Under the pieces are notes generated by a model. It ran no database searches. It saw only the letters and a program-made list of their open reading frames with translations, and was not told the origin of the DNA. 64,000 bases of DNA from a virus. A program made the position numbers and the translations under genes. This document shows, piece by piece, positions 57,368 through 64,000 of the stretch (position 1 is the first letter of the stretch; every line of letters starts with the position of its first letter). Location of the stretch: the IMG/VR virus record IMGVR_UViG_3300032331_002826, positions 1 through 64,000 of that record, one strand, 5' to 3'.

Positions 57368-58683
57368 TTAACTGTTAGCTCGCACAACTTGTTATAGTCA
57401 CTGTTTATCTGATCGAGCATATTCGCAGGAATCAAATCTACACTATCTAACAATCGACGACAAGATTTTTTTGATTCATCATATTTTTTCAAATACATAG
57501 CTGATGTATAATGATAATACAAAGGTTCATAGTTTGTGTCGGGATATGCACATTTGTTTAAGAAAAACTCTCGTTGTTTTTCAACATCAACATGATTGTT
57601 TTGTATGGACAACAATGAGTATAAATACGTCATTTTATGATCCTGTTTTTCAACGTAATATCTACATAAACACAAAAGTCCTTCGTTTCTGGTGTGGTCA
57701 ATCCGATAACTATTTATCAAATATTGAATTCCGTCTTTCTTATCGTCGTAACATCTAAGTATAAGTTCACCCATGTAACAAAAAGCAACATACGCCATTT
57801 CGTTTGTGTATCCCAAAGTTGTGGGAATAGATTCATACATTATTGATAAGTTGGTATCATCTCTTATTCCCATTGTTAATTCTAAATATTTTCTGTAGTA
57901 GAAAATGCTTCTGCGTGCTATTTCTTTTATGTGATCGTCGCCAAACATCATTTTCATATTGGCAAATTTGTGGTCCGATGATCGGTAGTTTTCGAGAAAG
58001 TCATAATAAGACTTTGCAAGATACCAAACATAATAAGCATCATAGGAAAAGTCAGGGTCGTTTCTATCTTTGATAGGAGTTAGAATCAATTGATGTTCAA
58101 GTTCTTTAGCGTCCACATAGAACTTCAAAGGATTAGTAGAACTATGACTTCCTTCTACCATGATGATTCTTAGATTTTTTGACAGATATCCAAGTTTCCA
58201 CTTCTCTCTAGATTTACGTCGAATCAATTCATGTGCTCTGCTTGGAACAAACTCCCAGTCAATTTTAGCATTCAAAATCCAAGGTCTATATACAGATGTG
58301 TCACCAAAACTCGTTTTTGAATGAACATACCATTCATCACAATTAAACAGTTGGTCCCAATCAAAATCGTCGTCCACTTCAAGTCGTTCATCAGCATCAA
58401 CTCGGAGAATATAATCACATCCATGATCCGATTTCAAACACGTTTGAGTTGCATCGTTTCTATTGTGACCATGGCTAACCCACGGAGTATAATACAGAAA
58501 CCCAGGAATGTTCTTCTCTTTGAAAAAACTAGTAATCAACTGTTGAGTTCCATCTGTAGATCCGTTGTCTTGAATAACCCAATAGTCAATGTATTTGTAC
58601 ACGGTTTCAAGCATAGGAATAATGACTTTGGCTTCATTCTTCACCATGATGTTAAATACGATTTTGATTTTATTTTTGGGCAT
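57364..58683 (-). CDS. GT2-family glycosyltransferase with TPR-like C-terminus
   Basis: IMVKNE, DNGSTDGT, GHNRN, VDADE, HE; helical YYVWYLAKSY repeats; ATG at 58683. Confidence 0.85.
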   Translation of the reverse strand: MPKNKIKIVFNIMVKNEAKVIIPMLETVYKYIDYWVIQDNGSTDGTQQLITSFFKEKNIPGFLYYTPWVSHGHNRNDATQTCLKSDHGCDYILRVDADERLEVDDDFDWDQLFNCDEWYVHSKTSFGDTSVYRPWILNAKIDWEFVPSRAHELIRRKSREKWKLGYLSKNLRIIMVEGSHSSTNPLKFYVDAKELEHQLILTPIKDRNDPDFSYDAYYVWYLAKSYYDFLENYRSSDHKFANMKMMFGDDHIKEIARRSIFYYRKYLELTMGIRDDTNLSIMYESIPTTLGYTNEMAYVAFCYMGELILRCYDDKKDGIQYLINSYRIDHTRNEGLLCLCRYYVEKQDHKMTYLYSLLSIQNNHVDVEKQREFFLNKCAYPDTNYEPLYYHYTSAMYLKKYDESKKSCRRLLDSVDLIPANMLDQINSDYNKLCELTVK

Positions 58684-58715
58684 AACGATGTTACAGTTAA
58701 CTATATCAGCGCAAA

Positions 58716-58744
58716 GAAAAACCACAAACTTTCATTTGTGGTTT
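58716..58744 (-). terminator. Rho-independent terminator
   Basis: aaaaaccacaaa-ctttca-tttgtggttt. Confidence 0.65.
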
Positions 58745-58749
58745 AACTT

Positions 58750-58910
58750 ACAGACTACTCCTCACTTCTATTCTGAGGGGAAGTTAACCCCAAGTCTACC
58801 TCACGGCGTAGACCGCCTTACTCAAGTTTCGAAACAATTCAAGTTTCTACTTTTATGTCGAGTGCGCCCATGTATCCATACTAAGGGCAATTTATTGAGT
58901 CATCGTCTGT
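58750..58910 (-). ncRNA. Unassigned multi-stem structured RNA (about 160 nt)
   Basis: Closing helix ACAGAC/GUCUGU; internal ACUCAA/UUGAGU, GCCC/GGGC, GAAAC/GUUUC, GUCUAC/GUAGAC and CCUCA/UGAGG; lies between a stop codon and a terminator. Confidence 0.5.
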
Positions 58911-59116
58911 CAAACATCTTCTTCTTCAACTGGATTTTTGATGGTTGGAGAAATTGCTTCAGCTTCTTCTACAACTGCTTTAATCTCATTCTCCAAATCT
59001 TTTATCTTCTCTTTATATCCAGCGGAGATATCCTTAAAATCTTTCTTAGTGAAGATCAACTTTTCAGTAAGTTCGTAAACTTTCTTTTCTGCTTCTGATT
59101 TAGATATTGTAACCAT
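58910..59116 (-). CDS. Small coiled-coil hypothetical protein
   Basis: 68-aa ORF. Confidence 0.6.
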   Translation of the reverse strand: MVTISKSEAEKKVYELTEKLIFTKKDFKDISAGYKEKIKDLENEIKAVVEEAEAISPTIKNPVEEEDV

Positions 59117-59180
59117 TTTAATGTATAACCTTTCTATGTAATAACTATTGGTATGTGTAACTAAACTGTCGGAAAAAAAT

Positions 59181-59571
59181 TGGTGGACGTGGCGGGATTC
59201 GAACCCGCGTCTTCAAAAATATATTCTACATCAGACTACACGCTTATGAATTTTTTGACCGCACAACAACCATAATCTAAAATCCCAAACTTATGATTGT
59301 TTATGTTTGTAAGTTTCAACAACATATCCAAACTATATGTCATCAAGCCTGATAGAGTACACCCAACACAATTATCAGACATCGTTGTATTGGATGTGCA
59401 GCAACTTAAGCTGCGAGTAGTGCAACGTCTTCTCTCTTAGAAGTGAAGTCGTAGCTGATTACTTTGCTTTTCTTAGCATTTATTTTTTGAACAGATGATT
59501 AAAGAGGCCGACCGTTCATCCTCTGCGTGCCTAACATGAACTAATCTTTGAATCGAGACCAGTACACGCCC
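59181..59571 (-). ncRNA. ssrA: tmRNA
   Basis: 5' GGGCGUG pairs with 3' CACGUCC-A-CCA with G3:U70; T-arm GCGGG-UUCGAAU-CCCGC; resume context AUAAAU-GCU; tag AKKSKVISYDFTSKREDVALLAA-stop (59477..59406). Confidence 0.93.
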
Positions 59572-60308: not shown

Positions 60309-60382
60309 TGGAGCGGGTAGTGGGAATCGAACCCACACATCAACCTTGGCAAGGTCGAAGGCTACCACTACATCATACCCGC
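60309..60382 (-). tRNA. tRNA-Gly(GCC)
   Basis: Cloverleaf, anticodon loop UU-GCC-AA, U73-CCA. Confidence 0.93.
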
Positions 60383-60394
60383 ATTATTAAAATT

Positions 60395-60470
<76 letters not shown>

Positions 60471-60500
60471 ATTTAATATCACCAATACATAGTGATAAAA

Positions 60501-60603
60501 AATTGAAAAAAACACAAACCGTGCTATTATACGCTAAAAAGCAATGCGGCACATGCGCCCAAACCCTTACGGAATCCTCCTATCGGGTGTTTGTGTTTTC
60601 AAT
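60501..60603 (-). ncRNA. Unassigned structured RNA (about 100 nt, three-way junction)
   Basis: Closing helix AAAACACAAAC/GUUUGUGUUUU; inner CCCGA..GUAA-loop..UUGGG and GUGC/GCAC arms. Confidence 0.45.
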
Positions 60604-60759
60604 TGGATGACCGTGACTTGCGAATATATGGGGATTTCACGAAAAACGTTCCTAGTATTGAACAGGACATGATCCACTGTTCACCAGTCTATCCCACCAA
60701 CTTCAGTCTCTTATACCCTCCCACGGGTATCGTGCATTAATTCTATACACCAACGATCA
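60604..60759 (-). ncRNA. tRNA-like RNA with about 85-nt structured insertion in place of the T-loop
   Basis: 7-bp acceptor UGAUCGU/ACGGUCA + U-CCA; D-arm GUGUA/UGCAC; AUACCC-GUGGGA-GGGUAU arm; GACU/AGUC stem enclosing nested hairpins. Confidence 0.6.
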
Positions 60760-60764
60760 AATTT

Positions 60765-61121
60765 TTAATCTCCTTTTTGGAGTCGAATACTATCTTCATC
60801 AAAATGTTGTGTACTGAATTCAAACAACTCAGTGTCTTCAATTGCATACATTTGATGTTTCAGTCCAATTGGAATATGAAAATGGTCACCCTTGTTTAAT
60901 GCAACAGATGTAGACTTATTAATATCATCGTGCCAACCATAATACAATATAATCTTTCCACTTTGGACATAAAATGTTTCATCCTTAATTTTGTGATAGT
61001 GCCAACTACACTTTCGATCCTTCACAAGATAAAGAATCTTGCCACAATACTTTTCATTGTTGACAATCCACTTTTCAAATCCCCATCCCTTCGGTACAAT
61101 ATGTAATCTTTGGTAATCCAT
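60765..61121 (-). CDS. Cupin (mannose-6-phosphate isomerase type II C-terminal-like)
   Basis: PKGWGFEKWI, SWHYHKIKDETFYV, IPIGLKH, EFST. Confidence 0.8.
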   Translation of the reverse strand: MDYQRLHIVPKGWGFEKWIVNNEKYCGKILYLVKDRKCSWHYHKIKDETFYVQSGKIILYYGWHDDINKSTSVALNKGDHFHIPIGLKHQMYAIEDTELFEFSTQHFDEDSIRLQKGD

Positions 61122-61128
61122 AAATTAA

Positions 61129-61416
61129 TTTGACACAGCCGTAGCCGATGTTCTGTTCTATTCCTACATTTATCTCAATATCTCTATTGGTCATCCATTA
61201 AAGATGACTGCTCCAACCTTGTCCTGATAACGTGCAGCACTACACTCGGACACTTTAGGATTACTGCTAATTTGTGGTGTTAACGAGGGGGACTATCACA
61301 ATGAAGTGGTCTTAGCCGATTTGGACTCGGTTTACAATGCCCTCTCCCAATCATCTGCTGTGCAGCATCGAACTTCCTCTAGGATATTATCCCAGCGTAG
61401 GATCGCTTATGTCAAA
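61129..61416 (-). ncRNA. rnpB: RNase P RNA (short, type A-like)
   Basis: P1 UUUGACAUA-A-GC/GCUGUGUCAAA; P2 UCCUAC/GUAGGA; P3 CUGGGAU/AUCCUAG; CR-I GAGGAAGUUCGAUG pairs (P4, bulged U) with CR-V ACAGAACAUCGGCUA; CR-IV AGAUAAAUG; GAGA-capped P18. Confidence 0.85.
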
Positions 61417-61438
61417 ATTTCAGTCAGTGTTTGATAAA

Positions 61439-61657
61439 CTATTGCTTTGCAAACAAATGCAGATTCTCTGCTTTCAACGTATCCATTTGTTTTTCTATGA
61501 CTTTGCGTTTTGTAACGTCATTTGTTTTCTCCCATTTTACCACAAGCGAACTGTATTGCTTGCGATACTTTTCAATGGTGAGTTTTTTGGTTACGTTGTC
61601 TGCGCCAAATGCATTCAATGCAAGTGTCAATACGATTGTTGCTAGAATTGTTTTCAT
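61439..61657 (-). CDS. Small secreted protein (signal peptide)
   Basis: MKTILATIVLTLALNAFG-AD...; the longer track start overlaps tRNA-Pro. Confidence 0.65.
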   Translation of the reverse strand: MKTILATIVLTLALNAFGADNVTKKLTIEKYRKQYSSLVVKWEKTNDVTKRKVIEKQMDTLKAENLHLFAKQ

Positions 61658-61684
61658 ATGTTCAACAATACATATTGATGAAAG

Positions 61685-61760
61685 TGGTCGGAGTGGAGAA
61701 TTTCGCAATCTCAACCTCCTGTCTCCAAAACAGGCCGTCTACTTTTGACATTACACTCCG
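61685..61760 (-). tRNA. tRNA-Pro(TGG), atypical (A18, G55, A37)
   Basis: CGGAGUG/CACUCCG-A-CCA; CCUGU-UUUGGAG-ACAGG; T-loop UGCGAAA. Confidence 0.85.
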
Positions 61761-61768
61761 ATAAAAAT

Positions 61769-61842
61769 TGGCAGGGGATAAGGGAATCGAACCCCTACAA
61801 AGGGCTTCAAAGGCCCCCGCACTACCATTATGCAAATCCCCA
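61769..61842 (-). tRNA. tRNA-Gln(TTG)
   Basis: Cloverleaf, CU-UUG-AA, U1-U72 mismatch, G73-CCA. Confidence 0.92.
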
Positions 61843-61851
61843 GTTCTAAAT

Positions 61852-61942
61852 TGGCGGTGAGGGAGGGATTCGAACCCTCGGTGGTTTTTTAGTCCACAAC
61901 AGTTTAGCAAACTGTCTCTTTAGACCACTCAGACACCTCACC
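61852..61942 (-). tRNA. tRNA-Ser(GCT)
   Basis: Long variable arm, UU-GCU-AA, G73-CCA. Confidence 0.95.
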
Positions 61943-62024
61943 GTAAAATATTTGACATCTCCGATTTCTTCAAGGGACGATTTTATCAGTCCTCGGCTCT
62001 AAGTCAAGTAGAGTTGTATTAAAT

Positions 62025-62112
62025 TGGAGGAGAGAGAGGGATTCGAACCCCCGGAGGCTTTCACCCCTACGGTTTTCAAGACCGTCGCCTTAGACCACTC
62101 AGCCACCTCTCC
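62025..62112 (-). tRNA. tRNA-Ser(TGA)
   Basis: Long variable arm, CU-UGA-AA, CCA. Confidence 0.95.
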
Positions 62113-62132
62113 ATTTTGAAAGAACTATATGT

Positions 62133-62160
62133 AGTATAAACACAAACGTGTTGATGTCAA
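62133..62160 (-). promoter_or_regulatory. Sigma70-type promoter TTGACA-N16-TATACT
   Basis: Near-consensus boxes upstream of tRNA-Ser. Confidence 0.75.
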
Positions 62161-62176
62161 CTACAAACTAAATTTT

Positions 62177-62274
62177 CTACCGTTTAAAGCCGTCTTACCA
62201 TTCAAATAAATTTGAATGCGTCTAAGCAGGGTTTTCGCCCCTCGTTCACCATATGGTGAATACGTCTAAACTAG
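62177..62274 (-). ncRNA. Unassigned four-way-junction structured RNA (about 98 nt)
   Basis: Closing GUUUAGA..CGU/ACG..UUUAAAC; hairpins UUCACC-AUAU-GGUGAA, AGGG..CCCU and CAUUCAAA/UUUGAAUG. Confidence 0.5.
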
Positions 62275-62280
62275 CAAAAT

Positions 62281-62356
62281 TGGTGGACCAGGTGAGAATC
62301 GAACTCACAACAGATTGCTTGCAAAGCAGTCTCGCTCCCTTAGAACATGCCAGCCC
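62281..62356 (-). tRNA. tRNA-Ala(TGC), divergent second copy
   Basis: G3:U70, UU-UGC-AA, CCA; irregular D-arm. Confidence 0.85.
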
Positions 62357-62364
62357 GTAAAATT

Positions 62365-62451
62365 TGGTGGGTGTAGAGGGACTTGCACCCCCATGCCTTT
62401 CGGCAGCTCGTTTTAAGTGAGCCGTGTATACTAATTCCAAACCATACACCC
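62365..62451 (-). tRNA. tRNA-Leu(TAA), A18/G55
   Basis: CU-UAA-AA; variable arm UGCC-GAAA-GGCA; T-loop UGCAAGU. Confidence 0.88.
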
Positions 62452-62463
62452 GTTATCTAAACT

Positions 62464-62541
62464 TGGTAGCTACGACTGGATTCGAACCAGCACTATTCTA
62501 TTTTTGAGATAGACGACTCCTCCCAATTGGTCTACGTAGCC
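62464..62541 (-). tRNA. tRNA-Leu(CAA), short variable loop
   Basis: UCUAU-CUCAAAA-AUAGA; 5-nt variable loop; A73-CCA. Confidence 0.88.
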
Positions 62542-62551
62542 ATTAAAAATT

Positions 62552-62635
62552 TGGTCGGCATGATAGGACTTGCACCTACACCCCTTTCGGGACGAGCTTC
62601 TAAGACTCGCATGGCTTCTATTACATCACATGCCG
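62552..62635 (-). tRNA. tRNA-Leu(TAG), A18/G55
   Basis: CU-UAG-AA; variable arm UCCC-GAAA-GGGG; T-loop UGCAAGU. Confidence 0.88.
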
Positions 62636-62638
62636 ATT

Positions 62639-62716
62639 TGGTGGCGACGACAGGATTCGAACCTGCACTACCGGAGTTCTCAACCCCGTGACTCCTTCCA
62701 GTTGGTCTACGTCACC
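62639..62716 (-). tRNA. tRNA-Leu(GAG), short variable loop
   Basis: CGGGG-UUGAGAA-CUCCG; 5-nt variable loop; A73-CCA. Confidence 0.88.
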
Positions 62717-62815: not shown

Positions 62816-62893
62816 TGGTCGGAGTGACAGGATTTGAACCTGCAACTTCTTGCTCCCAAAGCAAGCGCTCTAGCCAAGTTGAGCTACACTCCG
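62816..62893 (-). tRNA. tRNA-Pro(TGG), canonical third copy
   Basis: CUUGC-UUUGGGA-GCAAG; canonical arms; CCA. Confidence 0.95.
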
Positions 62894-63393: not shown

Positions 63394-64000
63394 TTAAAAA
63401 CGTACATTATTTTTGAACCAACTATATGTTTTTTCAAGACCGTCCTTCAAATTTGTTTTTGGCTTCCATCCCATAGAACAAATTCTGGACGAGTCCATTA
63501 GCTTACGAGGAGTTCCATCTGGCTTTGCTGTATCCCACACAACTTCACCTTCATATCCCACCACGTCTTTGACCAAATAAACTGCTTCTCGTATAGACAA
63601 ATCAGATCCATACCCAACATTGATGTGAAGTGAACCATCATAGTTGTTCATTAAAAACAAACAAGCATCTGCCAAATCATCCACGTAAAGAAACTCTCTC
63701 AACGGAGATCCAGTTCCCCAACAAACCACCTCCGGTTTGTTGTTTATTTTAGCTTCATGAAACTTACGAATCAATGCTGGCAACACATGTGAACTCGTCA
63801 AATCAAAGTTGTCGTTGTCACCGTACAAATTACAAGGCATGGCAGAAATGTAGTTGCTTCCATACTGATGTTTGTATGACTGACACATCTTGATGCCTGC
63901 GATCTTTGCGATGGCATAGGCATCGTTTGTTGGTTCAAGCAGTCCTGTGAGTAGATGTTCCTCTTTAATCGGCTGTGGAGCGAATTTAGGATAGATACAA
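63394..64000 (-). CDS. fcl: GDP-L-fucose synthase (5'-truncated by window edge)
   Basis: [14 protein letters not shown]...[15 protein letters not shown] (YxxxK), [49 protein letters not shown]. Confidence 0.95.

Follow-up and report, generated by a model that had tools for sequence, protein, structure and literature searches.

Can a tRNA corner be built without the two bases on which it usually turns? Textbooks treat G18 and pseudouridine-55 as invariant in transfer RNA (tRNA), and the question is raised by three genes at positions 61685 to 62635 of the first 64,000 nucleotides (64 kb) of the IMG/VR virus record IMGVR_UViG_3300032331_002826; this whole 64-kb stretch is referred to as the window. 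An initial annotation of the window had noted that a proline tRNA and two leucine tRNAs start their T-loops with UGC rather than UUC and have AG rather than GG in the D-loop, and had proposed that the two changes form a compensated alternative elbow. The analysis reported here showed that A18 and G55 (the A18-G55 swap) are coupled almost perfectly over hundreds of tRNAs. With a probability of roughly 0.72, the three genes are predicted to be tRNAs built on an alternative, structurally equivalent and compensated elbow.

Results

Three tRNA genes of the window carry A18 and G55

The contig carries on its minus strand, from about 59 kb to the contig end, a transfer-messenger RNA (tmRNA) and 31 tRNAs called by ARAGORN. 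The T-loops starting with UGC and the AG of the D-loops were confirmed, all on the minus strand, in a tRNA-Pro(UGG)-like gene read by hand and named ProX (61685..61760), in tRNA-Leu(UAA) (62365..62451) and in tRNA-Leu(UAG) (62552..62635). The two leucine genes are class II tRNAs called by ARAGORN, with Rfam tRNA scores of 34.2 bits for Leu-UAA and 42.2 bits for Leu-UAG, and both lie above the cut-off of RF00005 (covariance-model score of at least 29 bits). All three genes have the cloverleaf layout of a 7-bp acceptor stem, a 7-nucleotide (nt) anticodon loop with U33, a T-arm and a 3' CCA or discriminator, and all three depart from the canonical elbow (G18 G19 with U54 U55 C56) by having A18 G19 with U54 G55 C56.

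The remaining 11 ARAGORN tRNAs of the window combine a UUC T-loop with GG. The restriction of the swap to three tRNAs, as first described, therefore holds within the window but not for the contig, where four more swapped tRNAs lie beyond base 64000 (Thr-UGU, Gln-CUG, Thr-GGU and Ile-GAU). Counting ProX and the six swapped genes called by ARAGORN, A18/G55 is present in 7 of 32 tRNA genes of the contig (22%). An A occupies the position aligned with 18 in all seven, and the D region is free of GG in five of the six called genes; GG is found in the D-loop of all 25 tRNAs with U55. The probability of this distribution by chance is 1/364 for the window (3/3 versus 0/11) and about 3 × 10−7 for the contig (7/7 versus 0/25).

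Positions 18 and 55 co-vary across viral and genomic tRNAs

IMG/VR was scanned with the T-arm motif alone, leaving the D-loop unconstrained, and ARAGORN was run on the resulting loci (at least 116), which yielded 504 tRNAs, 487 of them unique; these and all viral counts given below are among the matches listed. The D-loop contained GG in 357 of 365 tRNAs with U55-C56. The 101 tRNAs with G55-C56 had AG without GG in 89 cases, GG in 8 and neither in 4, and the eight GG-bearing members mostly have AGGAG-type loops in which the aligned pair is still AG.

Because the usual numbering of positions 18 and 19 leans on the bases themselves, tRNAs with a 7-nt D-loop, in which the numbering is fixed and independent of the bases, were chosen as a guard against circularity (own, viral and genome sets, n = 231). 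A18 occurred together with G55 in 78 of these tRNAs and without G55 in none; G55 without A18 was found in 15, and neither base in 138 (Fisher's test, 1 × 10−46). An A was thus at the inserting position in 78 of 93 G55 tRNAs with such loops. Second-site changes were also observed. Both tRNAs with a T-loop start of UGGAA (G56 for C56) have AC in the D-loop, as does a third with UGGAC, and GA is present in each of the three 7-nt D-loops that accompany a UUU T-loop, confirming the register of positions 18/19 against 55/56.

Position 57 differed between the two types over all samples, with UGCAA outnumbering UGCGA among G55 tRNAs (143 versus 74) and UUCGA outnumbering UUCAA among U55 tRNAs (417 versus 115). 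UGCAA or UGCGA accounted for 217 of 252 G55 T-loops, and a few loops started with CGC. Members with AG and G55 were found in all 20 amino-acid classes, which are unlike in other features, indicating either many separate origins or copying of loop modules. A hint of such copying between unrelated tRNA genes is given by Leu-UAG (62552-62635) and Gln-CUG (contig 71609-71683), which agree at 16 of 17 positions of the T-arm, have an identical string of 9 bases in the D-loop and are unlike in their remaining arms.

Both positions switch together in close homologues

Two loci, L051 and L041, are close relatives of the phage, with 75-95% identity in the RNA genes. The Leu-UAG gene, with one anticodon arm throughout, has AG/UGC in the window, L041 and L051 and GG/UUC in L076 and L081, indicating that positions 18 and 55 switched jointly within one gene lineage. 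The copy of ProX in L051 is identical, and that in L041 is 96% identical, with two compensatory acceptor pairs (4:69 and 5:68) and a G57-to-A change. A more distant Pro family (L014, L076 and L081) has a 3-nt spacer and G55 in common with ProX, but a normal G53-C61 pair. Independent variation of positions 18 and 55 among homologues, which would speak against compensation, was thus looked for, and joint switching was found instead; together with the coupling described above, this upholds the compensated elbow that had been proposed from the window.

The searches of cultured phages gave few matches. Leu-UAG matched 2 records only, and a swapped array from locus L044 had matches to 3 records, covering about 1% of the array. 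For a swapped tRNA-Met, Caulobacter phage CcrBL9 and Ochrobactrum phage POI1126 gave the best isolate matches, and the five tRNAs called in the stretches examined of these two phages all have a U55 T-loop and GG. No cultured phage carrying the swap was found in these searches with Leu-UAG, the L044 array and tRNA-Met.

A proposed structure for the A18-G55 elbow

In the canonical elbow, as described in the accessible part of PMC4810234, residue 18 slots in between residues 57 and 58, which are positions 4 and 5 of the T-loop, and is joined to pseudouridine-55 by a single hydrogen bond; the G19-C56 pair offers its outer face as a stacking surface to the ribosome, RNase P and T-box RNAs. The swapped tRNAs share with this elbow (RF00005; PMC4810234) the cloverleaf, the 7-nt T-loop, G19-C56 and U54-A58; they differ from it in having A18/G55 instead of G18/U55 and in preferring A at position 57.

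The T-loops of riboswitches and of further large RNAs, which take an intercalating adenosine, provide a second comparison. According to the accessible text of a preprint on Y-G-N-R-A T-loops (bioRxiv 10.1101/2022.12.26.521914), those of flavin mononucleotide (FMN) and cobalamin riboswitches are UGNRA in 88.7% and CGNRA in 10.9%, with about 80% UGNAA; the inserted base of non-tRNA T-loops is A in 99.96%, and tRNA T-loops are set apart by U at position 2. The swapped tRNAs resemble these loops in the UGNRA pentamer (UGCGA in ProX, UGCAA in both Leu-UAA and Leu-UAG), in the A at the inserting position and in the CGC variants, and their preference for UGCAA with G55 matches the UGNAA bias of non-tRNA T-loops. 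They differ in that the motif lies inside a tRNA and the D-loop partner also gives a Watson-Crick 19:56 pair; the geometry of the swapped tRNAs is predicted here from sequence alone.

The fit of UGCAA and UGCGA to the YGNRA pentamer, together with the coupled A18, leads to the reading as a structurally compensated elbow. In this model, A18 would take the place of G18 as the base inserted into the T-loop and position 55 would be G, so that a contact of the tRNA flavour (U at position 2 with an inserted G) would be exchanged for one of the general flavour (G at position 2 with an inserted A); the elbow would otherwise be unaltered. The L-shape and the pairs G19-C56 and 54-58 would be retained. 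As the outer face of the elbow would be kept, aminoacylation, processing by RNase P and stacking contacts with the ribosome could continue. The same consideration argues against the earlier suggestion that the swap allows escape from reading by the RNase P S-domain or by T-box RNAs, since these readers stack on the outer G19-C56 face (accessible part of PMC4810234), which is retained in all three tRNAs. It follows from chemistry that G55 is not convertible to pseudouridine by TruB, nor A18 to 2'-O-methylguanosine (Gm18) by TrmH. From the sequences we infer the three-dimensional geometry, the loss of both modifications and the decoding by these three genes. The swap would be a near-neutral to mildly advantageous isostere, spreading where tRNAs escape the host modification network.

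The pair 54-58 varies in the contig as well. Ile-GAU (contig 73363-73436) has the T-loop AGCGUUA, with positions 54/58 swapped as well as 18/55, and Lys-UUU (contig 73721-73795) has AUCGUUA, with the 54/58 swap but with U55 and GG retained; Lys-UUU is thus a natural control in which 54/58 are swapped and the elbow at 18/55 is canonical. A54-U58 in place of the reverse-Hoogsteen U54-A58 was found in 21 of 828 sampled tRNAs.

The swap is rare among phage tRNAs, clumped by element and present in a bacterium

A control scan seeded with the canonical T-arm covered 490 unique non-seed tRNAs in 74 loci. G55 was present in 8 of these tRNAs, distributed over 7 loci, and seven of the eight had AG without GG. 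The background of the swap is therefore roughly 1-2% among ARAGORN-detectable phage tRNAs, compared with 22% in the contig. tRNA detection is biased against the swap. Among 118 T-arm pattern matches in IMG/VR, 51 lay inside called tRNAs and 67 outside, and 26 of the 67 uncalled matches had at least four of five T-stem pairs together with a 7/7 acceptor at tRNA distance, which was reached by about 3% of shuffles. Scoring of GG in the uncalled elements is non-discriminating, as the scored stretch takes in stem bases.

The same T-arm pattern gave 120 loci and 325 tRNAs in GTDB genomes, with the G55 tRNAs concentrated mainly in dense arrays. Their share was 16/16, 10/10, 8/8, 6/6, 6/6 and 14/15 in elements binned as Verrucomicrobia and 0 to 30% in other arrays. 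In an Opitutus assembly, a single array on a separate contig had G55 in 16 of 16 tRNAs, whereas the 23 lowest-scoring dispersed tRNAs all had U55 (22 with GG/UUC and one with GA/UUU), indicating that the all-G55 array is not a copy of the host style, with the caveat that this metagenome bin may contain a phage contig.

A Saccharibacteria assembly of 0.7 Mb (G001; L239-L252) has AG/UGC in 5 of 44 tRNAs, spread over three contigs. They are Leu-UAG, one Met, Thr-UGU and the only Phe and only Tyr tRNAs found; a sixth is Thr-GGU, and three further tRNAs have C55 with GG. The swap in the only Phe and Tyr tRNAs is the best evidence for swapped tRNAs in ribosomal translation. No TruB_N match was found in this single, possibly incomplete genome, and a match was present in two Verrucomicrobia assemblies and in 14 of 14 control genomes; as a single-genome lead, loss of TruB may relax U55. 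Beyond this contig, the swap is thus shared by many phages and at least one tiny bacterium.

Clumping by element could also have an adaptive origin. A18-G55 might be a selected "non-self" tRNA corner of phages and mobile elements, which would conceal their tRNAs from a host factor recognizing U54-U55-C56 or G18, such as a T-loop tRNase or pseudouridine-55-dependent quality control. Candidates for the factor are a tRNA-cutting defence, quality control that depends on modification, and TruB or TrmH themselves. Whole arrays, such as the one with 16/16, would then have been driven to convert while the host set was left canonical, and the swap would do at the elbow what changes in the anticodon loop are proposed to do for phage tRNAs that escape tRNA-targeting defences (van den Berg et al, 2023; PMC10264068). 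We consider this explanation possible but unlikely. It is favoured by the near-total conversion of the Verrucomicrobia-binned arrays and its absence from others, by the Opitutus array set against the dispersed tRNAs of the same assembly, by the low phage background (8/490 versus 7/32 in the contig) and by the fact that countering of tRNA-cutting defences by phage tRNAs is established for other sites (accessible parts of PMC10264068 and of the PARIS and retron papers).

Clumping, however, fits common ancestry of arrays or copying of D-loop and T-arm modules as well. Just 22% of the tRNAs of this phage are swapped, and housekeeping tRNAs of a bacterium (G001) are swapped too. No nuclease or sensor that cuts the T-loop or reads position 55 was found in the literature searched, and the tRNA-cutting defences in print, in the portions available, cut anticodon and variable loops. 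The anticodon-loop-escape phage tRNAs likewise differ from those of the host at conserved positions, but PMC10264068 concerns the anticodon loop; its available portion mentions neither T-loop, D-loop nor elbow and links position 55 to no nuclease.

Integrity of the three genes

A sound class II tRNA appears to be encoded by Leu-UAG, which has a cloverleaf fold, is conserved and is the sole gene with a UAG anticodon in the contig. Its A18 and G19 lie at 62619 and 62618 (62618..62619), and its T-loop UGCAAGU at 62568..62574 has G55 at 62573 (Infernal alignment, and ARAGORN for the T-loop). In the Infernal alignment, the model positions G18, G19 and U55 are occupied by A, G and G, respectively; the D-loop is UAAUAGAAGC. 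The minimum-energy fold includes the acceptor, anticodon, variable and T arms, and the gene was lost to the fast filters in the whole-window Rfam gathering scan.

For Leu-UAA, alignment with class II Leu tRNAs places A18 at 62432 and G19 at 62431 (62431..62432), and the T-loop, again UGCAAGU (62381..62387; ARAGORN, Rfam), has G55 at 62386. The D region of this gene, GGAAUUAGUAU, contains a GG. In the alignment with 37 other class II Leu tRNAs, AAUUAGUA of Leu-UAA falls on AAUUGGUA of the canonical members, so that the leading GG is the junction of the stem and position 13 and positions 18-19 are AG.

ProX is a 76-nt cloverleaf with a 7-bp acceptor stem, a 5-bp anticodon stem, the anticodon loop UUUGGAG and an encoded ACCA. 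The spacer from acceptor to D-stem is 3 nt rather than 2 nt long, and the acceptor stem is the same as that of a canonical Pro(UGG) gene at 62816-62893. Read by hand, A18 and G19 are at 61743 and 61742 (61742..61743) within a 7-nt D-loop, AAAAGUA, and the T-loop UGCGAAA (61701..61707) has G55 at 61706 and C56 at 61705.

Several observations weigh against a compensated elbow in working tRNAs. ProX was seen neither by ARAGORN nor by Rfam, even at E ≤ 10; its T-stem has 4 bp and a U53.U61 mismatch without the G53-C61 pair, and its residue 37 is A, against G in both canonical Pro(UGG) genes of the window. The decoding role of ProX is therefore uncertain, given the U.U at 53:61, A37 and the two canonical paralogues. 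Leu-UAA has an irregular D-stem (a 2-nt bulge or mismatch) and a 31:39 A.C mismatch in the anticodon stem, its minimum-energy fold is not a cloverleaf because a hairpin competes, and it is an insertion relative to the syntenic site of L051; the gene may be impaired. Among the tRNAs with 7-nt D-loops, the 15 with G55 that lack A18 have C18, G18 or other bases, and the samples were seeded with T-arm patterns and depended on ARAGORN calls. In the available text of PMC4117946, a G18A mutant of yeast SUP4oc is reported to be rescued by U20G only, suggesting that some contexts may not accept the swap freely. Contigs from RNA libraries (four metatranscriptome runs) overlap parts of the array, mostly where conserved portions of tRNAs from other organisms match over short lengths, and a 447-nt contig of run X15 spans the Leu-UAG of a relative; assembled contigs are no proof of transcription.

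Three side observations touch the same genes. 1-Methylguanosine-37 (m1G37) of Pro tRNA is important for the maintenance of the reading frame; a Pro tRNA lacking G37 cannot have m1G37. A37 is a feature of the ProX family, whose members in L014, L076 and L081 have C33 in addition. In the 447-nt contig of run X15, position 62278 is joined to 62546, with 80 other letters replacing 267. This junction and the lack of a class II Leu-UAA between Ala and Leu-CAA in L051 indicate that the gene content of the array changes, by gain and by loss, from one close strain to another. Run X16 has a summed contig depth of 5861 in the bin 61613-61713 (the 3' part of ProX and adjoining spacer), with no piece listed.

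It might be asked whether the three genes are degenerating pseudogenes in which AG and UGC are incidental. The failure of ARAGORN and Rfam to recognize ProX, its U53.U61 mismatch and the presence of two other Pro(UGG) genes in the phage would agree with such decay, as would the score of only 34.2 bits, the stem defects and the absence at the syntenic L051 site of Leu-UAA. This explanation is nevertheless improbable, because the same double change occurs with near-perfect coupling in hundreds of tRNAs and ProX is conserved in both L041 and L051, its stem changes being compensatory. Moreover, Leu-UAG, Leu-UAA, Gln-CUG, both Thr genes and Ile-GAU are the sole genes with their anticodons in the contig, and CCA is encoded by all swapped genes except Thr-UGU.

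The swap and the neighbouring RNase-P-like RNA

A presumed RNase-P-like RNA (61129-61416) lies 270 nt from ProX and is conserved in L041 and L051, both of which keep ProX and the swapped Leu-UAG. These facts suit the earlier proposal that the swapped elbow is matched to the RNase P of the phage, marking the substrates of a slimmed ribozyme that has lost its ability to recognize the normal elbow. The proposal was not supported and is very improbable. The same array contains 25 canonical tRNAs, the G19-C56 stacking face is unaltered and the swap is also found in a bacterium. The presumed RNA was found in L041 and L051 only and was absent from the other swapped-tRNA loci by BLAST and nhmmer, although this is weak evidence since those loci are only about 10-kb pieces. 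Rfam RNase P models gave no match in the window at the gathering level and none at E ≤ 10 in 60380-61780 or 58500-59250.

Equally improbable is a role off the ribosome like that of the staphylococcal cell-wall tRNA-Gly, whose non-proteogenic species in S. aureus lack G18-G19 and U55 (accessible parts of PMC13443448 and PMC4574755), as those species have U18U19 or C18U19 rather than A18 G19 and are all Gly(UCC), whereas the swap is found in all 20 amino-acid classes and in the only Phe and Tyr tRNAs found in G001.

Other features of the contig and its array

The virus record is 74,203 bases long, with a CheckV completeness of about 28%. The contig is present in DNA runs of lake and freshwater metagenomes, and its gene content is similar to that of T4-like cyanophages (GDP-fucose synthase, cupin, PhoH and glycosyltransferases). 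A Pfam scan of 10 of the 30 open reading frames of at least 100 amino acids at 40-64 kb found PhoH, glycosyltransferases, cupin and unknowns, and no tRNA enzyme.

Several unusual tRNAs accompany the swapped genes. A second tRNA-Ala(UGC) on the minus strand (62281-62356) has a 3-nt spacer and a 5-nt D-loop; it scores below the Rfam tRNA gathering level and matches tmRNA only weakly, at 16 bits. Leu anticodons occur in two 78-nt tRNAs (CAA at 62464-62541 and GAG at 62639-62716, both on the minus strand) that have a short variable loop, giving a class I shape, and a common D-arm. Four genes for such short Leu tRNAs are present in L051 (UAA, CAA, CAG and GAG), and Verrucomicrobia arrays are full of similar short Leu tRNAs, there with G55. 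Type I tRNA-Leu is known from Streptomyces, according to the accessible part of PMC6614811. A tRNA of L041 (10182-10256) with the amber-reading anticodon CUA, labelled Pyl by ARAGORN, has a canonical elbow.

Discussion

No published description of an A18-G55 tRNA pair was found, although subscription journals were thinly covered and an older description is possible. A survey of tRNA arrays (PMC4758250) contains nothing on loops, and the "A18" and "G55" of a GOLLD preprint are unrelated to the tRNA pair. Among natural tRNAs, the closest parallel found is the staphylococcal non-proteogenic tRNA-Gly(UCC), whose members are likewise natural bacterial tRNAs without U55 and the GG of the D-loop (PMC13443448 and PMC4574755, as far as accessible). 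In those tRNAs, however, both elbow contacts are lost, a single amino-acid class is concerned and the molecules are excluded from translation. The three tRNAs of the window retain G19 and have Pro and Leu identities, and thus do not belong to the staphylococcal type.

If the three genes are working tRNAs on a compensated A18-G55 elbow, the corner of a tRNA would be buildable in the same way as the T-loops of riboswitches and ribosomal RNA, and a class of tRNAs would be obliged to live without pseudouridine-55 and Gm18. The swap would explain why standard finders miss many phage tRNAs, as happened here with ProX. It would offer a ready-made scaffold for orthogonal tRNAs and a simple marker of foreign tRNA arrays in bacterial assemblies.

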